Positions 6,305-64,000 of a stretch of 64,000 bases of DNA are shown here, piece by piece. Each line of letters opens with the position of its first letter. Within the stretch, counting starts at the first letter, position 1. Made by a program: the position numbers and the translations under genes. The notes under the pieces were generated by a model. That model saw only the letters and a list, made by a program, of their open reading frames with translations, was not told the origin of the DNA and ran no database searches. Origin of the DNA: an uncultured Spirochaetota bacterium (GTDB lineage: Bacteria > Spirochaetota > Spirochaetia > JAFGXN01). Location of the stretch: assembly GCA_944388995.1 (NCBI GenBank), contig CALXKN010000008.1:17160-81159 (forward strand), given 5' to 3'.

Positions 6305-6330
6305 AAACCGGCTTTTGCCGGTTTTTTTTT
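6304..6330 (+). terminator. rho-independent terminator after flgM
   Basis: AAAACCGGC-TTTT-GCCGGTTTT is followed by a T-run. Confidence 0.7.
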
Positions 6331-7153: not shown

Positions 7154-7795
7154 ATGGGAATCATTGCTAAAAAGAAAAAAGACAAAAAAAGTTTTCAAAC
7201 CGTTTTGAAGGAATTTCCGTCCGAAGTGAAAAAAAATTGGAAAATGAAGACGGCGATTTTGATGATTGCACCGATTGCGCTGCTGATCGATCAGATTACA
7301 AAATCGTTGGTCGTCCGCTTCATTCCGCTTTACGGTTCGCTTTGGGGCGATCCTTACGAAGGGATTCTGCGCATTATTCACGTCCGCAATACGGCGATCG
7401 CTTTCGGTTTGGGACGCGGTTTTGCCGACGAGGTGAAAGCGGTTCTGTTTATTCTGCTGCCGCTGATCATCGTCGTCGCGCTGATTGTTTATTCACTTTA
7501 CAAAAACGAACAGCCGCTTTATCAGCGGATTGCGTTTGCGCTGATTATCGGCGGCGGTTTGGGAAATCTGACGGACCGGATTTTCCGGCCCGGAAACGTC
7601 GTTGATTTTGTTGACACGGTTTGGTTCGGTATCGACGCGCTGCGCGATATTCCGCTTCTCAAGCTGCTGTCGTATGAACGGTGGCCGACCTGGAATTTTG
7701 CCGACGCCTGCGTTGTCGCCGCCGTCGCCATTCTTTTGGTCGGAATGATTGCCGAAGAAATTCAAATGAAGAAAAAAAAGAAACGGCCGGCTTAA
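7154..7795 (+). CDS. lspA: lipoprotein signal peptidase II
   Basis: NTAIAFGLG...GGGLGNLTDRI...VVDFVD...WPTWNFADA motifs. The ATG at 7154 follows AGGAG at 7144-7148. The track start at 7127 overlaps the upstream gene. Confidence 0.85.
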   Translation: MGIIAKKKKDKKSFQTVLKEFPSEVKKNWKMKTAILMIAPIALLIDQITKSLVVRFIPLYGSLWGDPYEGILRIIHVRNTAIAFGLGRGFADEVKAVLFILLPLIIVVALIVYSLYKNEQPLYQRIAFALIIGGGLGNLTDRIFRPGNVVDFVDTVWFGIDALRDIPLLKLLSYERWPTWNFADACVVAAVAILLVGMIAEEIQMKKKKKRPA

Positions 7796-55224: not shown

Positions 55225-55253
55225 ATAGTAAAAGAAAGCCGCCGTCCTGTCAA
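55225..55253 (-). promoter_or_regulatory. sigma70-type promoter abutting the start codon of the SBP gene (leaderless geometry)
   Basis: On the minus strand the sequence is TTGACA, 17 nt, TACTAT, GGCGGC, then ATG (55218). No Shine-Dalgarno is present. Confidence 0.5.
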
Positions 55254-55254
55254 C

Positions 55255-55421
55255 CTTTTCGTTTTTTGGGCGCGCGCCCCTGCGGGGCGCCGGGCTTTCC
55301 GCTGCAATTCGCAGCCTCCCTGCGCCTTCACCGCGGCAAAGCTGCCGCTTTGCCCTGCGCCTTCTCTCCGTCGGCAGCTCATTTCCGCTTCAATCCCTCG
55401 CGCCTTCGGCAAGGTGCTGCG
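55255..55421. repeat. GC-rich structured repeat, copy A (167 bp)
   Basis: Identical to 56426..56591 apart from one extra T. It contains the hairpins GCGCCCC-TGC-GGGGCGC, GCTGC-AATTC-GCAGC and GCGGCA-AAGC-TGCCGC, plus internal sub-repeats (TTTCCGCTnCAAT, CCTGCGCCTTC). Confidence 0.9.
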
Positions 55422-55631
55422 GAAATCGGCATTTTATTGTTTTAGTGTAAAAATGGGAACTTCCGAAAACAGTCAACCGTTTTTCGGAAAAATAACTGCC
55501 CTAAACGTATTTTTGTGTTATAATAACTCCAATAAAAATTTCGTATGGCAAACACAGCAAAAGCAAAACCCGAAAAAAACGCCGATTAAAACCGGAGCGG
55601 AAGATTCGGGAGAAACTTGGAGCGATCGGGT

Positions 55632-55922
55632 ATGAGCTGTAATCTTCCTGAAAGCGTGGTTTTCGATATTGAACGATTCGCAAAGAAAAACAAGATTAAA
55701 AAGGTCGTTCTGTTTGGCTCCCGCGCGAGGGGCAATCATTCGGAACGAAGCGACATTGATTTGGCGGTCAGCGGTGGAAACGCGGCGGATTTTTATTACG
55801 ACGTCAATGAAGAAGCGCGGACTCTTTTAATTTTTGATGTGGTCAATCTGGACGGACCGGTCAGCGGCGAACTGCGCGCCGAAATAGAAAAGGACGGAGT
55901 TTTACTCTATGAAGAAATTTGA
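55632..55922 (+). CDS. minimal nucleotidyltransferase (MNT), antitoxin partner of HEPN (HI0073-like)
   Basis: LFGSRARGNHSERSDIDLAV carries the GSxxRG...DxD NTase motif. The ATG at 55632 is used, whereas the track uses an upstream TTG. Confidence 0.85.
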   Translation: MSCNLPESVVFDIERFAKKNKIKKVVLFGSRARGNHSERSDIDLAVSGGNAADFYYDVNEEARTLLIFDVVNLDGPVSGELRAEIEKDGVLLYEEI

Positions 55923-56304
55923 CAATTTTTGCAAAGCGCTTTCGAATTTGCGGGAAGGATTGCAGCTTGAAGAACCGTATTCTGTCGTCGAACGGACGGG
56001 CATCATCGGGCTGTTTGAAATTTGCTTTGAGCAGGCATGGAAGCTGATGAAAGCGGTTTTGGAAGAGCACGGCAGGACAATCGACCGCGTCGGTTCCCCG
56101 AAAGTTGTCATTCAGCTTGCATATCAGAGCGGGATGATTGACGACAGCGAAAAATGGCTTTCCCTGCTCAGAGATCGAAATATCCTTGCTCACACCTACA
56201 GCGACGAAGATTCGCTTGCCGTGATTCGAACGTTAAAGACGGACTACGAGCCCTTGTTCGCCACCCTCAAAGAAGAGATTGAAACGCGCCGGCTTTCGGC
56301 GTAA
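55909..56304 (+). CDS. HEPN-domain toxin / nucleotidyltransferase substrate-binding protein (HI0074-like)
   Basis: 131 aa. It overlaps the MNT gene by 14 nt and carries the RNILAH Rx4H HEPN motif. Confidence 0.85.
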   Translation: MKKFDNFCKALSNLREGLQLEEPYSVVERTGIIGLFEICFEQAWKLMKAVLEEHGRTIDRVGSPKVVIQLAYQSGMIDDSEKWLSLLRDRNILAHTYSDEDSLAVIRTLKTDYEPLFATLKEEIETRRLSA

Positions 56305-56425
56305 AGCGGAGGCGCGAAACAACTGAGTCCGGTATGAAAGTAGAAGAAATGGGAGCGAAAACTCTTTCAATCGCCACTGATTCTGCCAGCATCTTTACAT
56401 TTGGCTCCGCCCCCCCTCGCTGAAT

Positions 56426-56591
56426 CTTTTCGTTTTTTGGGCGCGCGCCCCTGCGGGGCGCCGGGCTTTCCGCTGCAATTCGCAGCCTCCCGCGCCTTCA
56501 CCGCGGCAAAGCTGCCGCTTTGCCCTGCGCCTTCTCTCCGTCGGCAGCTCATTTCCGCTTCAATCCCTCGCGCCTTCGGCAAGGTGCTGCG
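56426..56591. repeat. GC-rich structured repeat, copy B (166 bp)
   Basis: A direct repeat of 55255..55421 in the same orientation, on the other side of the MNT/HEPN pair. Confidence 0.9.
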
Positions 56592-56655
56592 AAAGAGGCG
56601 TCTGAAAACTATAAATATGAGAACAATCTCATTTAAACCTCATCCATTTTTATCT

Positions 56656-59541
56656 TCAGCAGAAATGCGCCATATCGCGCGGATAATACTTGCAGTCGTG
56701 CAGTTCCGTGTCGTCAAGCCCCAGCGCCTTTACCAGGGCAGCAGACGCTATGCACCAGTACCCGCGGTACTGGTTCTTTTTCAAGTCAAATTTTGTTATA
56801 AGCCCATCAGTCTTCGTGTGAATCCACTGTCTTTTAAGATACCGTTTTAACCGCTCAACAGCCGCCGCTTTATTCTCTTTTGAAAGCAGTACCACCTCAT
56901 ATACCGCATTGGAATATTTCGGACAGCAGAGCTTTTCCGTGCGTATCTGCCAGGATGAGTCCAGCGTCTGCATAAGGAAATCCAGATAAAAATCCCGCTG
57001 TTCCGATTTTTGTAACAATTTTCGATAGTCATCCAGAAATTCAGTCCTGTTAAAAAGCATAATCAAGTACAGAACAGTTTCCATATCTTCATAATTATCA
57101 TTGCCGTCCTGTGCGTCTATCAAATGACGCAAAATCAGGTCTACTTCGGGAAGCAGCTCATGCATATCTAGCCCTAAGGAATATCCTGTATAAAATTTGT
57201 AAAATGCATAAGTATATATTTGATATTTAAACGCTCTTATGTCCGATTCTGCCTGATGTTCATCAGTCTCAATATTATGATGATGATACGTTTGCAGTAT
57301 TTCTTTCAGCTTTTGGGAATCTTTCTTGAATCTTTCGTCAAAATATTCCTGGGGTTTGACTTTATCCCTCATCATTCTTACCCGGGGCGGAAGTTTTTCC
57401 CGCTCCTCCTCCGTAAGAAATTGCGACAGTTCAACTAAAAAGGGCTCTATAAACTCCGACATGAGTTTCGCTTTATTCCCGGCTGAGTGATCATAAGGTA
57501 TTTCAATTGCCGATGTCCGCCGTTTCTCATCCTTCCACAAGCGTCCTATTTTAATAAATGAACCGCCTTTCTCAAATATGTACAACGATATAATCAGTGT
57601 GCAGTCTTCATACTCACATTCTATATAATCTTGCTCCCCCAAGCAGTAATCTCTGTAGGTAAGATTCCTCAAAGTGGTTATTATCCAGGGTATCCACTCT
57701 TTTTTGATGACAACACTATCCCATGACTGCCATGACCCGGTACCGAAACGGCTGCCGGTTCTGGTGTTGATTCGTAGTTCGCCTTTGGGACTCCAGGGCG
57801 TGGGAAGTTTTTTCCGTTCTTCTTCAGGAAGAAATTGTGACAAGGCCACTAAGAAGGGTTCTATAAATTCCGACATGATTTTCAAGTCGTTGTCCGATTC
57901 TTCAAAATTAAATTCGAAACGGGTATAACGCCACTTTGATGTCAGGGTATAACTCTGCTCATTTTTTGCATGCCAAGGAAAATAAGGTATTTCAAGTGCC
58001 GGCGATATCTTCTTTTCATCCTTCCACATGGGAAATATTTTTATATAGGAATACCCATCCCCTATAGGACAGATACTTAATGTTAATTGGCACGTTCCCC
58101 ATTTATTTATGATGCTTTCAACTCCTGTTTGATAATTATCAACACTAAGATTTCTCAATGTGCTTATTATCCAGGGTATCCGGTTTTTTTGTATAACAAT
58201 ACTTTTCTGCTGCCCGCCGCCGAATGTACCGGTTCTTTTTCCGTTAATCCGTAATTCATCGTTATCTAATTCCTCGAAGCTGTATTCAAAATCGGCATTC
58301 AGAGTTTTTTTGCTTTGATATTTTGTTATCTTCTCTATTTTGGCTACTATCGATTCGTCGTCCGACTTATCGGTTTCGCCTGCATACCAATCTTTGCCTT
58401 CGAGCCATACCCCGAACCAGAAAGGAAGATCCCCCCAAGGTCTTTGACAGAGTTCTTTCTTTTCGTTGACACTCCAGGGGGGCGACAGTTTACCCCTTTC
58501 TTCTTCCGTGAGAAACTGCGACAATGCAACCAGAAACGGCTCTATAAATTCCGACATTAATTTTGTTTCTTTCCGGGATACATAGGGTATTTCAATATTC
58601 CATGAACTCTTATTTTCATTTTTCCAGACAGGATAAATTTTGATATAGGAATAATCAAAGGGTACTACATTTATAATAAAACTTAAATTACAGTAACCGT
58701 ATTCATATACGAGAGTTTGCGGGGTGTTATAATCGTCGATAGTGGCATTTCTTAGTGTGGTAATGATCAAAGGTATCCACGCTTTTTTTATGATAATACT
58801 TTCCCATTGTCCCCTGCCGAATGAATCTGTTCGCTTTGCATTGATTTCCAACTCGTCATCATTTAATTCTTCATTGTCAGCTTTTTCCTCAAAATAAAAT
58901 TCGAAATGAACATTCCCGCCCTTACTGATCAGGTATTCTTTTTCTGCCAGTCCGTATTGTGTTATACCGGTCATTGCTTTGAAAAAATTGAGGGAACCGC
59001 TTTCCTTATCGGCAAAAATGATGTTCTGTTTTTTGTTTTCCCTCCAGGGAGGCGGAAGTTGTGTTCTTTCTTCTTCGGTAAGGAATTGTGCCAATTCAAC
59101 CAAAACAGGTTCGATAAATTCCGCCATTAACCTGCTTTTATCCCAGGGTAGATATGGTATTTCAATAAACGGTGTCGTTTTTTCCTTCGGTTCCTTCCAT
59201 ATGGGCATTATTTGAAGGGTCGCATAATCTTTGGCAGATGGTAAAAACTCCAGATTGACTTGACATTCTTCATATTCGTGAACGATATGTCTGTTCCAAA
59301 TCCCTTCCGGAAAGTTGATGTCGTAATCCTCAAAAGGAAGGGTTCTCAGTGTGGTGATAATCCGGGAAATCCACGCTTTTTTTATGACGATACAGTAATA
59401 CAAAGGCATACGTTCCGCTTCATCCAACAATGGAAAGGTTATTTTTTCGAAAATCCGTATTTCGTCGTTGTCCGATTCCTCAAAATGAAATTCAAAGGTA
59501 TCGGATATTTCGGCATCTCCCCTTCTGCCTGTAATGAACAT
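56656..59541 (-). CDS. 961-aa fusion protein: four tandem copies of an unrecognised ~150-190 aa module plus a C-terminal PoNi-like (DUF1910/DUF1911) immunity domain
   Basis: Repeats lie at about aa 15-166, 212-356, 417-523 (+541-583) and 588-719. They share FEFxFEExDNDELRIN, IIKKAWIPxIITTLRN, YIKIxPxWKDEKK, IEIPY and KLMSEFIEPFLVxLSQFLTEEERxKLPPPW. Residues 723-961 begin MRDKVKPQEYF and end YRGYWCIASAALVKALGLDDTELHDCKYYPRDMAHFC. Confidence 0.65.
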   Translation of the reverse strand: MFITGRRGDAEISDTFEFHFEESDNDEIRIFEKITFPLLDEAERMPLYYCIVIKKAWISRIITTLRTLPFEDYDINFPEGIWNRHIVHEYEECQVNLEFLPSAKDYATLQIMPIWKEPKEKTTPFIEIPYLPWDKSRLMAEFIEPVLVELAQFLTEEERTQLPPPWRENKKQNIIFADKESGSLNFFKAMTGITQYGLAEKEYLISKGGNVHFEFYFEEKADNEELNDDELEINAKRTDSFGRGQWESIIIKKAWIPLIITTLRNATIDDYNTPQTLVYEYGYCNLSFIINVVPFDYSYIKIYPVWKNENKSSWNIEIPYVSRKETKLMSEFIEPFLVALSQFLTEEERGKLSPPWSVNEKKELCQRPWGDLPFWFGVWLEGKDWYAGETDKSDDESIVAKIEKITKYQSKKTLNADFEYSFEELDNDELRINGKRTGTFGGGQQKSIVIQKNRIPWIISTLRNLSVDNYQTGVESIINKWGTCQLTLSICPIGDGYSYIKIFPMWKDEKKISPALEIPYFPWHAKNEQSYTLTSKWRYTRFEFNFEESDNDLKIMSEFIEPFLVALSQFLPEEERKKLPTPWSPKGELRINTRTGSRFGTGSWQSWDSVVIKKEWIPWIITTLRNLTYRDYCLGEQDYIECEYEDCTLIISLYIFEKGGSFIKIGRLWKDEKRRTSAIEIPYDHSAGNKAKLMSEFIEPFLVELSQFLTEEEREKLPPRVRMMRDKVKPQEYFDERFKKDSQKLKEILQTYHHHNIETDEHQAESDIRAFKYQIYTYAFYKFYTGYSLGLDMHELLPEVDLILRHLIDAQDGNDNYEDMETVLYLIMLFNRTEFLDDYRKLLQKSEQRDFYLDFLMQTLDSSWQIRTEKLCCPKYSNAVYEVVLLSKENKAAAVERLKRYLKRQWIHTKTDGLITKFDLKKNQYRGYWCIASAALVKALGLDDTELHDCKYYPRDMAHFC

Positions 59542-59780
59542 TGCATCTACCAGTTTAAGAAAAGCTTTTGTATCAGCGGATTGGGCAGATTCTTCATGTT
59601 GATCGTCTTCTTTATTATATTTTATTCCGACTCCTAAGGAACGCAGCCGTCATATCGAAGGGGTGCAACGGTATGACGGCCAACACTCCGCTTTCACGCG
59701 GTGGTCTTATGCTGTTCATGTCGATACCGGACCGCTTCCGACACAACCGAATGAAGTTTTCCGATTTTCCGAATCAATTT

Positions 59781-60486
59781 CTAACAGAAATGGGTCATAT
59801 CGTAGGGATAGTATTTACAGTCTTTCAGTTCCGTATCGTCAAGTTTGAGGGCTTTTACCAAAGCGGCGGCGGCGATGCACCAATACCCCCGGTACCACCC
59901 TATTTTCAGATCCCGGTTGGTTATAACACCTTCGGTTAATGACATAAACCACTGCCTTTTAAGATACCTCTTTAACCGCTGGACGGCTTCCGCCTTGTTT
60001 TCTTTTGACAGCATTACCACCTCGTATACCGAATTGGTCTCTTTGGGGCAACGAAGTTTTTCCGTACTTATCTGCCATGTGGAGTCTACTATCTGTACAA
60101 GATAATCCAGGTAAAAATCCCGCATTTTCGATTTTTGTAATAACTCCTTATATTCATCCAGAAATTCTGTCCGGTTAAAAAGAATGATTAAGTATATAAT
60201 CATTTCCATATCATCATAACCTCTGTCCCTTTCTCTCGTTGTATCAATCAAATTTCTTATGATAAGGTCTACTTCGGGAAGCAGCTCATTCATACCAAGC
60301 CCCAGGGAATAGCCTGCATAAAATTTACAAGCTGCTTCCATATATATGTGATATTTAAACGACCATACATTATATTTTTCCGGATGGCTTATTCTCTTCA
60401 TATTTACTCATCCGTTCAGCAAGATCAGACGCATCCTTATTATATCTTTCCCTAAAATATTCTTCTGTTTTTATGGTGTCTCTCAT
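59781..60486 (-). pseudogene. PoNi-like (DUF1910/DUF1911) immunity gene, apparently split by a 1-nt frameshift; the 206-aa ORF 59781..60401 may still be expressed
   Basis: ORF 59781..60401 aligns with aa 770-961 of the 961-aa protein. The missing N-terminus (MRDTIKTEEYFRERYNKDASDLAERMSKY) is encoded at 60486..60400 in another frame and stops at 60370. Confidence 0.6.
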
Positions 60487-60489
60487 CTG

Positions 60490-60630
60490 TTATTCCTTGT
60501 GTATTTTGTAAATTTTTGGTTTATTCTCGTTATACATAACATTGCCATTTTCATCAAGTTGGTAATATGTTACTTTTCCTCCCTTCGGAACGCCTGCGGC
60601 GTGGCTACAATCCTTTGTGCGAGAAGATTT
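60490..60630 (-). pseudogene. start-less 46-codon remnant, probably the C-terminal tail of a toxin, ending 3 nt before the PoNi-like ATG
   Basis: The open frame KSSRTKDCSHAAGVPKGGKVTYYQLDENGNVMYNENKPKIYKIHKE* has no ATG/GTG/TTG. It begins right after TGA TAA at the edge of the 58-bp repeat. Confidence 0.4.
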
Positions 60631-60642
60631 TTATCAATGGTG

Positions 60643-60700
60643 TCCGTACACACCCATTGATGTTGTCAAAGAACTCCTTCTGTACGGAGATAGGGGGAGG
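60643..60700. repeat. 58-bp junction repeat, copy 1
   Basis: TCCGTACACACCCATTGATGTTGTCAAAGAACTCCTTCTGTACGGAGATAGGGGGAGG is identical to 63943..64000. It contains the 8-bp inverted arms TCCGTACA and TGTACGGA separated by 30 nt. Confidence 0.9.
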
Positions 60701-60701
60701 G

Positions 60702-60929
60702 TTATTCAAAAGTTATTACCATATGCGAACCTGCCGTTTTTTCGGTTACTTTCTGTATAATCTCTTTTTTGTCATCTTCAGTTAATGGCTCGTTTTCTGG
60801 AACAAGCCAATTTTTCATTGAACTTTTATAACAGACAAAACCGCCTACTATCATTTCGCCTGCGATTCTCGCAGTTCTGCCATCGAGTTCTACATCTATG
60901 TATGTGTTTGTTCCGGTTATTTTTGTCAT
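60702..60929 (-). CDS. small hypothetical protein (75 aa) in the immunity-gene array
   Basis: The ORF lies 9 nt downstream of the DUF600 gene. Its first 10 codons are duplicated at 62353..62324. Confidence 0.5.
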   Translation of the reverse strand: MTKITGTNTYIDVELDGRTARIAGEMIVGGFVCYKSSMKNWLVPENEPLTEDDKKEIIQKVTEKTAGSHMVITFE

Positions 60930-61036
60930 ATATTAATCCTATGCATTATCCCATTCGTCTTGAAGAGCCTGATCCCATTCAAAGGTCATATCAAAGTGAC
61001 CGTTCTTTTCAAGGGTGTAAATAGCTTTGTTCCATT
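60899..61036. repeat. 138-bp segmental duplication, copy 1
   Basis: Matches 62323..62460. The first 64 bp are identical and the rest is roughly 85 percent identical by eye. It spans the 3' end of a DUF600 gene, the spacer and the 5' end of the 75-aa gene. Confidence 0.85.
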
Positions 61037-61271
61037 GTGCAAAATGTAACTCTTTTGCACTATTATGAAATTTTATTAAATCAATTTTTGTTTCTCGATT
61101 AAGTGCTAAGTTTAAAGCATTTTTCCATTCTCCATTAATCTGATATTTTGCATTCGTACCAATATATTTATCACTACATTCAATATTCAGTTCAATTTTA
61201 TCCCAAGAGGAATCAATACTATCATTCAATTGCGAACCAATATTTTTATATATATCTTCAATATTTTTCAT
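60939..61271 (-). CDS. DUF600 / YezG / EsaG-type immunity protein
   Basis: 110 aa, starting 11 nt after the nuclease-domain stop with an AGGAG RBS. The overall pattern (acidic, WDKIELNIE...W..A.Y.L...G.F...F) fits DUF600 antitoxins of EsaD/YeeF nucleases. It is a paralog of 62363..62686. Confidence 0.7.
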   Translation of the reverse strand: MKNIEDIYKNIGSQLNDSIDSSWDKIELNIECSDKYIGTNAKYQINGEWKNALNLALNRETKIDLIKFHNSAKELHFAQWNKAIYTLEKNGHFDMTFEWDQALQDEWDNA

Positions 61272-61282
61272 AAATACTCCTA

Positions 61283-61648
61283 TTAATTTAAGAAGAACAA
61301 ATTTTCTGTTTTTTCTATTTTTCCATCCGATGTTTTTATAATGTATGTTACATCAAAATCTGTCGGTCTTAGATTATCAGCATAGTTTATTTTTATATCA
61401 ACTTCAACCTTTTTTCCCTCTGAAAGTGCATCGTTCCATTTTTTTTCCATGGTTTTCCATTCACCATTATTTAGTGTGGCGGTTTGTGGAACATAATTTA
61501 TTTGTTCTCCAGGACCATTGAAAATTCTTGCAATAATATGTCCGCCCTGGTCATCACCTTTAATACCATCTTTTATATCAACTGATTTTCCTTGTTGATA
61601 AACATTTCTGTCTTTTGTTTCAAGTTTTAATTCTCCGCTTACTTTGTT
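61283..61648 (-). pseudogene. orphan, start-less C-terminal nuclease toxin domain (EsaD/YeeF-type, Endonuclease_NS_2-like)
   Basis: Manual translation gives NKVSGELKLETKDRNVYQQGKSVDIKDGIKGDDQGGHIIARIFNGPGEQINYVPQTATLNNGEWKTMEKKWNDALSEGKKVEVDIKINYADNLRPTDFDVTYIIKTSDGKIEKTENLFFLN*. The frame opens after a TAA at 61649-61651 and has no ATG/GTG/TTG until codon 68, so it is absent from the ORF track. Confidence 0.7.
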
Positions 61649-61731
61649 TTACAACTATTTTCTTTTACTTGCAATTGTTCCAAAACGATTAAGTGCAGCA
61701 ACAATATCTTCATAATCAGCATCTATTTCAT

Positions 61732-62262
61732 CTAACTGTCCCAGATTTCCTTAAATTTTAAACCTTTGATACTGTTTTTCTTAACAATATCTATAAACTC
61801 ATCTGTTACAAAATAATCTCGAATAATTAATTGATTTTGTAGTTTAACTTGAAAAAGAGGTGGATAATTGTTTTCCTTAAAATAATATTGCTCAACACCT
61901 AAAATATCATTCTCAAAATACTTATATTTAGTTTTTTTTCGATCTAAGCAGTCCAAAACAGTTAAATTATTTAATAGTACAAAATCGTCATTAAGCGGAA
62001 CAAATCTTATATTTATTTGAGAAATGTCAGAAAGTACTGCCATAAATTTTTTATTTATGAAGAATCCTCTACAATCATAACATTCACAAATATCCCCTGC
62101 AGGATTATTAGAATCTCTATCGTATTCTAATTGAAAATCAGAAGGAATGCTTATTTCTATACCTTTATTAAACTGACGTAAAATTTTTCTATCAGTTTCT
62201 TCGTTTTTTATATAGCATCCTTTGTAATTATCAATATCTGTTTCTAAAATGTATATTTTCAT
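61732..62262 (-). CDS. hypothetical 176-aa protein, immunity-protein-like by context (family not firmly recognised)
   Basis: An AT-rich ORF within the immunity array. Its size and composition resemble DUF1629/Imm-type proteins, but no diagnostic motif was identified. Confidence 0.45.
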   Translation of the reverse strand: MKIYILETDIDNYKGCYIKNEETDRKILRQFNKGIEISIPSDFQLEYDRDSNNPAGDICECYDCRGFFINKKFMAVLSDISQINIRFVPLNDDFVLLNNLTVLDCLDRKKTKYKYFENDILGVEQYYFKENNYPPLFQVKLQNQLIIRDYFVTDEFIDIVKKNSIKGLKFKEIWDS

Positions 62263-62299
62263 ATATCCCCCCCCTAATTGTGAATTTTTAAGAAACCAC

Positions 62300-62353
62300 T
62301 CAATAATTCCTTTCGGATTGTTTGTATGTGTTTGTTCCGGTTATTTTTGTCAT
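62300..62353 (-). pseudogene. 17-codon relic of the 75-aa gene
   Basis: MTKITGTNTYKQSERNY*. The first 10 codons are identical to 60929..60900, after which the sequence diverges and stops. Confidence 0.6.
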
Positions 62354-62460
62354 ATATTAATCCTATGCATTATCCCATTCGTCTTGGAGAGTTTGATCCC
62401 ATTCAAATGTCATATCAAAATGACCATTCCTTTCAAGAGAGTAAACAGCTTTGTTCCATT
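62323..62460. repeat. 138-bp segmental duplication, copy 2
   Basis: See 60899..61036. Confidence 0.85.
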
Positions 62461-62686
62461 TATGCTCAGGCGACATAGATTCTTGAAGTTCAAAAACGCT
62501 ATCCATTAAAGTATTTACAGTTAATAAAGGAAACTTTAATTCTTTTTTTTCAAACGATGATAAAGTATATTCTGCCTGAAATGAACACATTTTATTTAGA
62601 CTTGATTCTATTTTTACAGTCACTTTTTCCCATTTACCGGAAATATTATCTTGAACCGCCTTGCCTAATTCTTTATATAAATCCAT
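62363..62686 (-). CDS. DUF600 / YezG / EsaG-type immunity protein, second paralog
   Basis: 107 aa. The C-terminal KWNKAVYSLERNGHFDMTFEWDQTLQDEWDNA is nearly identical to the C-terminus of 60939..61271. Confidence 0.7.
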   Translation of the reverse strand: MDLYKELGKAVQDNISGKWEKVTVKIESSLNKMCSFQAEYTLSSFEKKELKFPLLTVNTLMDSVFELQESMSPEHKWNKAVYSLERNGHFDMTFEWDQTLQDEWDNA

Positions 62687-62732
62687 AGCATCTCCATTAA
62701 TTGTTGAATATTTTTTTGAATAGTTGGCTCAT

Positions 62733-63842
62733 TTATTTCTCTTTATTTAAAATAAACAGATACTCAGAGACGTGTATATTACGGTTATTCAAATTTCTGC
62801 TTCCCCGGAATGTATTATAAGTCATTTCAACGGTTTTCAGTTTTCCGTAGTGTTCCAGCATTGTTTTCATTTGCTCAAAAGTAATAAATCCTTCAGAATT
62901 ATAAGAGATAATGACAAACTTTGAATCAATTTTATCTATGATTTTTTCCATGGATTTTAAGGCTGAATAAGGTTTGTTGAATTCCGAGCGGTTCCAATCC
63001 TGAGTTATCCCTGAAACTTTACTGATTTCAGCATCCAGCCTGTTCTTTATGATAAGATTCAGCATAAAATAATTTGAACCATAGGGATGCTGGTTATACG
63101 GGGGATCCAGATAAGTAATATCTATTTTTTTTAATTCCCCGGCAAGTTCCACAGCATCTTTTTTATAGATTTTAACCTTTGAATTGAAATTGCTTAAAAC
63201 CGGCTCTTTCAGTTCTATTTTTCCAAAAATGCGGGTTAAAGCGTTTTTCCCGGCAGCGCCGAAACATCCGATTCCGGTATTTTTGTCCTTGTAAAACCCT
63301 TTGAAAACCCCGCTTGTATTGACATGAACCGAAGCCTCCGTTACGAGCGGCGCTAAAAAAAATTTTTTCATGTCTTCTTCCTGCACCACTTTATCAATCA
63401 GACTGCGGTAAGTGTCGATTAACAGAGCGTTCTCATGGGTATAAAAAACCCTTTCTCCTCTTTGAATATTTCCGTCATCCTGAGGGGCATAATTTTTTGT
63501 GATAATTCTCGGTTCTTTTTTGCTGCGGCACATTTCTTCTATTATTGATTTATATTCCCGCCATTTTTCATGCGGAAAATCTTTTTTGTCAGTCAGATAG
63601 CATTCATTGATGAGGCGGGAATATTCTTCCAGATCATTGGCAATTAAAACACTGCTGTATTTTTTCAGCATCCGGGCAACAATTCCCGAACCGGAGAAAA
63701 TATCCGCACAAACAAGTTTTTCTTTTCCCAATAAACCGGCAATTTTTTTGACTTCTTCTTCTATATTCCTGATAAGCTGCCGTTTGTTCCTGATATAAGT
63801 AATGATCTGTGCAGTAAGATATTCTTTATTTTCTTCTTTCAT
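62733..63842 (-). CDS. N6-adenine DNA methyltransferase (SAM motif then DPPY), no cognate endonuclease visible
   Basis: DIFSGSGIVARML (FxGxG, motif I) near aa 48 and YLDPPYNQHPYGSNY (motif IV) near aa 244. Length is 369 aa. Confidence 0.8.
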   Translation of the reverse strand: MKEENKEYLTAQIITYIRNKRQLIRNIEEEVKKIAGLLGKEKLVCADIFSGSGIVARMLKKYSSVLIANDLEEYSRLINECYLTDKKDFPHEKWREYKSIIEEMCRSKKEPRIITKNYAPQDDGNIQRGERVFYTHENALLIDTYRSLIDKVVQEEDMKKFFLAPLVTEASVHVNTSGVFKGFYKDKNTGIGCFGAAGKNALTRIFGKIELKEPVLSNFNSKVKIYKKDAVELAGELKKIDITYLDPPYNQHPYGSNYFMLNLIIKNRLDAEISKVSGITQDWNRSEFNKPYSALKSMEKIIDKIDSKFVIISYNSEGFITFEQMKTMLEHYGKLKTVEMTYNTFRGSRNLNNRNIHVSEYLFILNKEK

Positions 63843-63877
63843 GGCTGTAAAGATTTATATTGTTCCAAATTTCCGGT

Positions 63878-64000
63878 TTATTCTATGCTTTTTGACAGAC
63901 CTTTATACTCAGTATCCCTCTCCGCAAAAATCAACCCGGATTTCCGTACACACCCATTGATGTTGTCAAAGAACTCCTTCTGTACGGAGATAGGGGGAGG
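63878..64000 (-). CDS. 3' end of a gene whose body lies beyond the window edge; its last 40 codons include the 58-bp repeat
   Basis: Only one minus-strand frame is open from 64000: PPPISVQKEFFDNINGCVRKSGLIFAERDTEYKGLSKSIE*. It stops 35 nt before the methyltransferase ATG. Confidence 0.45.
   Translation of the reverse strand, partial: PPPISVQKEFFDNINGCVRKSGLIFAERDTEYKGLSKSIE
63943..64000. repeat. 58-bp junction repeat, copy 2 (may extend past the window)
   Basis: Identical to 60643..60700. Confidence 0.9.

Follow-up and report, generated by a model that had tools for sequence, protein, structure and literature searches.

A 58-nt element repeated in a spirochaete toxin/immunity island is probably the hitch-hiking 3′ spacer of a duplicated Imm74 cassette

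The window, i.e. the whole 64-kb stretch of DNA analyzed here, contains two exact copies of the 58-mer TCCGTACACACCCATTGATGTTGTCAAAGAACTCCTTCTGTACGGAGATAGGGGGAGG. These are found at positions 60643–60700 and 63943–64000, in the same orientation and 3300 nt apart, which confirms what a preliminary description of the DNA had reported. Further copies are not present in the window when as many as three mismatches are allowed, and 0 of 100 dinucleotide-preserving shuffles contain a match. In this part of the window the minus strand carries all genes. The features are listed below in the order of that strand, with related contigs and loci designated by L numbers and junctions marked by a slash.

63943–64000, minus strand: element copy 2, spacer nt +2 to +59 after Imm74 copy A, a gene just past the window edge (L001 7529–7586)
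63843–63942, minus strand: native methyltransferase upstream region joined to the spacer at +59; homologous to L009, L012, L013 and L014 up to ...GGAG/ATCCGGG, with CGGA microhomology
62733–63842, minus strand: D12-class N6-adenine DNA methyltransferase, 369 aa, orphaned (PF02086, E = 9e-18)
62363–62686, minus strand: YezG-like immunity gene, 107 aa (PF04634, E = 7.5e-5)
62323–62353, minus strand: remnant of a third Imm74 gene, its first ~30 nt, in repeat D4; Imm74 start motif at 62353, L019 homology resumes at 62326
61732–62262, minus strand: Imm11-like immunity gene, 176 aa, AHH partner (weak Imm11 match, E = 5e-4)
61283–61700, minus strand: degraded Endonuclease_NS_2 toxin fragment (PF13930, E = 3.5e-6 on a 55-aa ORF; 93% identity over 255 nt to the 212-aa NS_2 gene of L001)
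60939–61271, minus strand: YezG-like immunity gene, 110 aa, directly 5′ of Imm74 copy B (PF04634, E = 4.5e-4; C-terminal repeat D4)
60930–60953, minus strand: upstream end of the long repeat, last codons of the preceding immunity gene and ribosome-binding region (blastn, alignment and upstream comparison)
60702–60929, minus strand: Imm74 copy B, 75 aa, body of the long repeat (PF15603, E = 1.3e-15; 93% nt identity to copy A)
60643–60700, minus strand: element copy 1, exact 58-mer, spacer nt +2 to +59 after Imm74 copy B; equals the first part of the 158-nt L019 spacer
60576–60642, minus strand: spacer continuation, +60 to +126, kept only at copy 1 (126-nt common prefix with L019, L020 and L024)
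60402–60575, minus strand: remnant of a toxin-tail-like ORF, ending in GVPKGGKVTYYQLDENGNVMYNENKPKIYKIHKE and a stop, and displaced PoNi start (three-frame translation; homology to the 238-aa PoNi of L009 resumes at ~60525)
59781–60401, minus strand: PoNi immunity gene, 206-aa ORF (PF08929, E = 6e-20; N-terminus in another frame compared with the 238-aa L009 ortholog)

The sequence beyond the window edge is available in contig L001, retrieved with the 369-aa methyltransferase as an exact protein match. From position 64000 towards lower coordinates this contig shares 99.9% identity with the window, and it carries a further 7.5 kb past the edge; L001 position 7529 corresponds to window position 64000. 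Element copy 2 had been thought to lie inside a gene that runs past the window. Extension past 64,000 shows instead the stop codon of a second 75-aa Imm74 gene 1 nt beyond 64000. This gene, copy A, is at L001 7300–7527 and ends 1 nt before element copy 2 (7529–7586), and no toxin gene runs on past the window. The position given earlier for copy 1, directly after the stop of a 75-aa gene, is correct: the element starts 1 nt past the stop codon (60702–60704), and the gene is Imm74 copy B. The match of copy B to PF15603 scores 57.6 bits, where the curated cut-off is 27.1, and covers residues 5–75.

The real repeat is ~311 bp in length, L001 7277–7586 versus window 60953–60643, and displays 93.2% identity by blastn and alignment. 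Its parts are the 228-nt Imm74 gene, ~23 nt in front of it and 59 nt after it. Copies A and B do not differ over the final 92 nt; their mismatches are concentrated in codons 40–66. The 58-nt length of the element is bounded by the window edge on one side and by the breakpoint of copy 2 on the other.

Element copies 1 and 2 are preceded by the same 33 nt, and consequently the frame PPPISVQKEFFDNINGCVR (PPPISVQ...) is closed at both, 5 codons upstream (a stop followed by LLNNPPPIS). Past the element, this frame has 15 codons at copy 1 and 21 codons at copy 2 before it stops, and at copy 2 it represents at most a 43-aa TTG-started ORF. The element is spacer DNA that does not code for protein and lies immediately 3′ of an immunity gene. 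L021–L023 and L025–L028 have C instead of T at element position 28. This T>C variant is the only SNP among ~28 copies, but it shows that the element is not invariant; the pattern that allows for the T/C SNP is CCCATTGATGTTGTCAAAGARCTCCTTCTGTACGGAGATAGG.

Beyond the window, L001 carries an Imm11-like 180-aa gene, a 142-aa AHH chimera and the 212-aa Endonuclease_NS_2 gene, and then a Na/Ala symporter and transporters. The 142-aa gene is a chimera of a YezG-like N-terminus and an AHH C-terminal fragment. The island, with a length of ~12 kb, ends ~2.2 kb further on, at the 212-aa NS_2 gene adjoining the Na/Ala symporter. On the minus strand, the order in L001 is NS_2 (212 aa), the 142-aa chimera, the Imm11-like gene (180 aa) and Imm74 copy A. 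It continues in the window with the 59-nt spacer, the methyltransferase, the YezG-like gene of 107 aa, the 30-nt Imm74 remnant, ~53 nt of an AHH gene end and the 176-aa Imm11-like gene that these precede. Then follow the NS_2 fragment, the YezG-like gene of 110 aa, Imm74 copy B, the 126-nt spacer, the toxin-tail remnant, PoNi and a 961-aa multi-repeat PoNi protein. Gene calls and scans of the window end and L001 gave no integrase, transposase or recombinase. The gene content supports the reading of this region as a polymorphic toxin/immunity island, a mosaic of immunity genes and toxin fragments.

The methyltransferase (62733–63842) is the first gene of the 3.3-kb block between the element copies. 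It has 86% aa identity to the L021 methyltransferase, which adjoins an EcoRI-family endonuclease; of such an endonuclease gene only ATGAGCCAAC is left in the window. In L009 and L014 the methyltransferase, the YezG-like gene and Imm74 are directly adjacent, and a full Imm74 gene is found directly after the 107-aa YezG-like gene in L009, L010, L014 and L017. Direct repeat D4, in which the window's Imm74 remnant is located, comprises 60899–61036 and 62323–62460 (93% identity).

The 176-aa Imm11-like gene has 99.5% nt identity to a 179-aa gene that lies between AHH and Imm74 in L019. Compared with L019, the Imm11-like and Imm74 genes of the window are split by a 795-bp insert, which contains the NS_2 fragment and the 110-aa YezG-like gene. 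L008 has the order AHH, 180-aa gene, Imm74 and SH3b fragment. AHH toxins have Imm11 (DUF1629) as their partner (PMC3482391), in agreement with the pair of AHH and 179-aa genes found here. Imm74 is an immunity family for ADP-ribosyl cyclase (Tox-ARC) toxins and is found in heterogeneous polyimmunity loci (PMC3482391); one Imm74/ADP-ribosyl cyclase toxin pair has been tested experimentally (PMC12356396). A Tox-ARC toxin is not next to Imm74 in any locus examined, where the neighbours are AHH, Imm11-like, YezG-like and NS_2 genes. With no ARC toxin as neighbour, both Imm74 copies look like orphan immunity genes.

Exact matches to the window's Imm74 protein are listed in 236 blocks of a protein-position index, and ten loci with this protein were examined (L019–L028). 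Most of these display an eCIS_core (DUF4157) protein, a 286-aa AHH toxin, a 179-aa gene, Imm74, a 158-nt spacer and a 136-aa gene. The segment from eCIS_core through AHH and the 179-aa gene to Imm74 looks like an intact operon. The 158-nt spacer has a GGAGG ribosome-binding site at its end, before the 136-aa gene. The element corresponds to nt +2 to +59 of this spacer in L019 and related loci, and L019 3491–3854 equals window 60940–60576 with 98.6% identity. The number of spacer nt kept after the Imm74 stop codon, before unrelated DNA begins, was compared across 30 loci and is as follows.

0 nt: L014, then unrelated DNA; homology to L009 stops exactly at the stop codon
18 nt: L017, then a Mor-family gene
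59 nt: window copy 2 and L001–L006, then the methyltransferase cassette
62 nt: L008 and L009–L013, then an SH3b-domain fragment, in frame
85 nt: L007, then a 305-aa secreted SH3b protein
about 105 nt: L023, then unrelated DNA
126 nt: window copy 1, then the toxin-tail remnant and PoNi
158 nt: L019 and related loci, then the next operon gene

The Imm74-plus-element unit is joined to at least five other downstream sequences in related contigs. That the element is followed at copy 1 by a differing sequence (toxin-tail remnant and PoNi) had been pointed out before and is borne out, and homology between the two cassettes ends at the element. The +59 junction, GTACGGA/AATCCGGG, has only CGGA in common with the native methyltransferase upstream sequence TCCGGAGGAGATCCGGG of L009 and L014. 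At the +62 junction the end of the spacer, AATGGGTGTGTACGGACA, is similar to AACGGGGTGTACCGGGCA, where the SH3b domain of the L007 gene begins, although this similarity is imperfect (AAYGGG.GTGTAC.GG.CA). The breakpoints are nested and scattered and show microhomology, which argues for illegitimate joining into a hitch-hiking flank and not for a site-specific system.

Diverged loci provide a measure of constraint. In L015 and L016 the Imm74 gene has 87.3% nt identity to copy B, and the 59-nt flank has 63.5% identity with indels, by which it can still be told apart from shuffles (46.6 ± 3.7). The longest inverted repeat in this flank is 4 nt, versus the 8-bp arms of the element. In L018, where the Imm74 gene has 85.6% identity, the element is not detectable. 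Among 13 copies of the Imm74 gene there are 3 variable sites in ~120 nt outside the two variant blocks; among ~28 copies of the element there is 1 variable site in 58 nt. These levels are alike; conservation of the element does not exceed that of its gene.

The 8-bp inverted arms TCCGTACA and TGTACGGA are present, as first described, and an arm of that length occurs in 56 of 5000 shuffles. Folds of the element as DNA are no better than those of shuffles (z = −0.84 and −0.41), and the same is true of RNA folds (z = 0.04 for the element region and −0.74 for the whole 158-nt spacer). There is no Rfam match in 59500–64000 at E ≤ 1. A scan for coding-strand terminators and promoters shows none at the element, with counts equal to those of shuffles.

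A 42-mer of the element is found in 2 of 185,579 species-representative genomes, one copy each, both uncultured Spirochaetales/Spirochaetia MAGs; this GTDB scan 42-mer spans the SNP position, such that copies with the C variant would be missed. With a 29-mer chosen to exclude the SNP, JGI metagenome contigs and IMG/VR gave no match. A genome-wide count had been suggested earlier as a check for a common dispersed repeat. The two single-copy genomes, together with the absence from the JGI and viral collections, show that the element is not dispersed; it is lineage-restricted and tied to Imm74.

The element is probably a hitch-hiking spacer of a duplicated Imm74 cassette. It would have no function of its own and would now act as a substrate for homologous recombination, being neither a special site nor a toxin part. 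The ~311-bp direct repeat is formed by two paralogous copies of the Imm74 cassette, whose fuller context is displayed by the operon of related contigs, with AHH toxin, Imm11-like gene, Imm74, 158-nt spacer and next gene. This cassette appears to have been copied and reshuffled within and between strains, and other DNA may have been joined into the spacer at varied distances by illegitimate, microhomology-level recombination. Copy 2 would have kept 59 nt, followed by the methyltransferase cassette, and copy 1 126 nt, followed by the toxin-tail remnant and PoNi, and the stretch shared by both is for this reason 58–59 nt long. The two copies would represent a homology tract for ordinary homologous recombination, with loss or duplication of the intervening 3.3-kb block as the predicted outcome. 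The extent of the repeat, the identity of the element as spacer, the scattered breakpoints, the decay of the flank in the diverged lineage and the lack of structure signals are the observations that carry this explanation. The direction of events, with the full spacer as ancestral (polarity by parsimony only), and the recombination mechanism are what we infer from them.

The preliminary description can be taken as a model in which the element is conserved coding sequence near the C-terminus of a polymorphic toxin gene and provides a shared 5′ homology for the swapping of toxin-tail and immunity modules. The island does hold toxin fragments together with immunity genes, and what follows the element varies from copy to copy and from strain to strain. 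However a stop closes the PPPISVQ... frame 5 codons upstream of each copy, Imm74 ends 1 nt before the element, and only 15–21 codons remain before a stop. The sequence PPPISVQKEFFDNI is inside a longer protein in 0 of 5.8 billion proteins, and the only ORFs that start with it are of 95 and 97 aa. The divergent stretches that follow the element do not represent alternative toxin C-termini. Copy 2 is followed by a methyltransferase cassette with its native upstream region. The extension past the window, where there is no large toxin gene, refutes this toxin-coding reading, which is exceedingly improbable. What stands of module swapping in a polymorphic-toxin locus is the type of locus and the strain-level rearrangement at this boundary; the element as toxin coding sequence does not. 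A related proposal is that the element is coding in another sense, as the first ~21 codons of a small SH3b-domain gene translationally coupled to Imm74 by a TTG start that overlaps the Imm74 stop, with the window copies as truncated remnants. In L008 and L009–L013 the frame does lead on to a bacterial SH3 domain (ORFs of 95 and 97 aa; PF08239, E = 5.8e-8), and there are two SH3b variants, only 72% identical, that both have the open frame. Other homologs, however, align only from ..NG.YR onward, and these are the C-terminal parts of 305- to 584-aa secreted proteins, so that the ORF looks like a fusion to a fragment. The nested series +85, +105, +126 and +158 shares a different continuation, in which the frame stops after 15 codons; the start would be TTG, and indels in L015 break the frame. 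An SH3b gene start is unlikely. Duplication by faulty assembly has next to no probability. These are metagenome assemblies, and the long contigs L007 and L029 break inside the repeat, but L002, L003 and L004 are independent assemblies from different samples, and all three carry both copies with the 3300-nt spacing and distinct flanks, which rejects an artefact.

A site-specific mechanism or an RNA structure had also been considered from the inverted arms. The element could be a target of site-specific recombination, or a single-strand hairpin of the kind known from attC and IS200/IS605, for insertion of cassettes after Imm74; a hypothetical recombinase cut would fall at ...GTGTACGGA. The arms are rarer than chance, the +59 and +62 junctions are at the 3′ foot of the stem, and the element is identical in five downstream contexts, to which further loci add one SNP. 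Against such a site are the other breakpoints at 0, 18, 85, about 105 and 126 nt, the other cassette boundaries of the island that do not have the element, the lack of an integrase or transposase in the gene calls and scans of the window end and L001, DNA folds no better than shuffles and arms that are not conserved in the diverged homolog. In addition, the 58-mer has no GTTRRRY core by eye. The attC-like version is rejected by the missing core sites and integrase and by the scattered breakpoints, and site-specific recombination in general is very unlikely. It is also very unlikely that the element is a regulatory RNA, terminator or promoter of the Imm74 operon and conserved as such. The element is always located after the Imm74 stop codon and contains GAAGGAG and TTGACA motifs. 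However its RNA folds no better than shuffles, the Rfam and coding-strand terminator and promoter searches gave nothing at the element, and in L015 the flank has decayed more rapidly than the gene, while L014 and L018 lack it. The spread of the breakpoints over 0–158 nt and the loss of the inverted repeat in the diverged homolog weigh against a site-specific mechanism and a hairpin alike.

Variable sites of Imm74 are concentrated at positions 45–72 and 120–198. One haplotype of block 120–198 occupies position A in L001, while L003 and L004 have it at position B, and L002 has the other haplotype at both positions, all in short-read metagenome assemblies where chimeric threading is possible. The distribution fits gene conversion between Imm74 paralogues, as far as short-read assemblies go. 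Long contigs L007 and L029 end inside the ~311-bp repeat. A search for rearrangements between the copies, which had been advised earlier, was run on the 7 contigs that carry the window's PoNi gene and gave no simple deletion product, i.e. copy-A upstream sequence joined to copy-1 downstream sequence (0 of 7). The ~311-bp repeat breaks, and may mis-thread, short-read assemblies of these genomes. For repeats that touch a window edge, the sequence is best extended first and interpreted after.

The +59 and +62 junctions are two independent junctions within 3 nt of the 3′ end of the inverted repeat. This speaks against a purely hitch-hiking spacer and could hint at a hairpin-associated hot spot. 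There is a small chance that the foot of the inverted repeat (...TGTACGGA) is a preferred break-and-join point, a hairpin-prone hot spot that captured the methyltransferase (+59) and the SH3b fragment (+62). If true, it would represent a recombinase-independent or not-yet-identified mechanism of cassette capture for spirochaete immunity islands.

Several known systems resemble this island. Tandem immunity paralogues of type VII secretion loci, EsaG and TipC, recombine through homology blocks (Garrett et al. 2022, PMC9484751). Like these arrays, the present locus has same-orientation paralogues, near-identical blocks that flank variable blocks and a gene content that varies between strains, and variant blocks may be exchanged between copies (here in short-read assemblies, with chimeric threading possible). 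Unlike the homogeneous EsaG/TipC strings, it has two full Imm74 copies and a 30-nt remnant that are split by unrelated cassettes; it also differs in the Imm74 family, the uncultured spirochaete host and a homology that reaches into the 3′ spacer.

Heterogeneous polyimmunity loci are similar in being same-strand arrays of unrelated immunity families with short spacers (here Imm74, YezG-like, Imm11-like, PoNi and the 961-aa multi-domain PoNi protein), whose content varies between close strains. By definition, however, toxin cassettes never break up a polyimmunity locus (Zhang et al. 2012, PMC3482391). The present region contains NS_2 (61283–61700), a toxin tail (~60500–60575), the AHH fragment and full NS_2 gene of L001 and an orphan methyltransferase. 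Thus the island looks more like a decayed polymorphic-toxin cassette array than a strict polyimmunity locus.

Integron attC sites are similar in that a short element immediately 3′ of a cassette ORF has inverted arms, here at two cassette ends. Unlike attC, the element is accompanied by no integrase among the genes seen, displays no conserved core sites and is missing from other boundaries; its breakpoints are scattered and its arms are not conserved.

In Vibrio T6SS loci, sequential displacement leaves immunity arrays (PMC5361080), and orphan modules downstream of Rhs/CdiA genes are displaced and then re-activated by homologous recombination (Koskiniemi et al. 2014, PMC3967940). The present island is like both, in that sequential displacement leaves immunity genes and toxin remnants, and short homologies allow later recombination. 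It represents one more immunity/toxin island, from an uncultured gut-type spirochaete lineage, with the duplication, illegitimate joining and homologous cassette exchange already described for T6SS, T7SS, Rhs and CDI loci. In Rhs/CdiA orphans the kept homology is the pre-toxin coding region, whereas the repeat here is an immunity gene with its non-coding spacer. That the homology tract takes in non-coding spacer is a minor peculiarity of this locus.

An equivalent of the pre-toxin homology of Rhs/CdiA orphans is also present, outside the window. An 88-nt stretch that encodes MAETVIFERKAGTVYVKPNETLIKNG.WD (MAETVIF...) is common to the AHH toxin of L019 (286 aa) and the NS_2 toxin of L001 (212 aa), with 95.5% identity followed by divergence into different toxin domains. 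The genuine toxin-swapping homology of the system is this N-proximal 88-nt stretch, which is unrelated to the 58-mer.

The 142 amino acid "AHH" gene at positions 6316–6744 of L001, a related contig that overlaps the window and extends 7.5 kb past position 64000, is a chimera. Residues 1–45 are similar to the N-terminus of YezG-like immunity proteins, and the remainder is the C-terminal part of the AHH nuclease toxin of contig L019, with 99% nt identity. The chimera is another recombination scar. The sequence MAETVIFERKAGTVYVKPNETLIKNG.WD is common to the 286 amino acid AHH toxin (L019 2291–2378) and the 212 amino acid Endonuclease_NS_2 (NS_2) toxin (L001 5658–5745), spanning 88 nt at 95.5%, and past this stretch the two proteins split into different nuclease domains. 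It is here that the true polymorphic-toxin homology lies. The start of the NS_2 gene is an internal Met, which resembles an orphan C-terminal cassette.

A Trp-Asp (TGGGA) motif is found as an end or switch point in several unrelated proteins.

Sites of the Trp-Asp (TGGGA) motif
window 60930–60960
window 61732–61745
L001 7270–7299
L019 3470–3500

The motif is present at the C-termini of Imm11-like proteins (EIWDREKD, EAWDSEKD and EIWDS), at the C-terminus of a YezG-like protein (DEWDNA) and in the toxin pre-domain (NGEWD/NGAWD), and the direct repeat that carries the Imm74 immunity gene (the Imm74 repeat) has its 5′ edge within the codons of the motif. Its recurrence may represent recurrent microhomology or may be due to chance.

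Within the Imm74 genes of L014 (2443–2691) and L017 (529–795), tandem duplications of 21 nt and 39 nt preserve the reading frame and lead to products of 82 and 88 amino acids, respectively; the length variation may be real, or it may have arisen as an artefact of assembly. Two contigs, L007 (327 kb, at its end, position 7465) and L029 (61 kb, at its start), end inside the Imm74 repeat, so assemblies of these genomes break repeatedly at this duplication.

Also inside the island is an orphan D12-class adenine methyltransferase gene (window 62733–63842). In L021 (5574–7228) a methyltransferase gene with 86% identity is followed by an EcoRI-family endonuclease gene; only the first 10 nt of the latter (ATGAGCCAAC) are left in the window, where a YezG-like cassette follows.

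The PoNi immunity gene of the window (60402–60490 and 59781–60401) looks frameshifted. Its N-terminal 30 codons (MRDTIKTEEYFRERYNKD...) match the 238 amino acid ortholog in L009 and are in a different frame from the 206 amino acid open reading frame. Positions 56656–59541 encode a 961 amino acid protein with four internal repeats of ~190 amino acids followed by PoNi_N and PoNi_C domains, i.e. a polyimmunity-type fusion protein; the L009 counterpart has 987 amino acids and its encoding DNA is 92.6% identical. Tandem repeats of ~22 nt (GTTTCACAGTCTGAAACAAAGT) lie directly 3′ of a truncated PoNi_C gene in L008 (430–600), and similar units are present in L007.

A nucleotidyltransferase/HEPN toxin-antitoxin pair of the MNT-HepT type (55617–56304) is located between GC-rich direct repeats of ~173 nt (55247–55424 and 56418–56594), which are 98% identical and are the only two copies within the window. 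With a duplicated flank on either side, the pair resembles an inserted cassette at the border of the immunity island.
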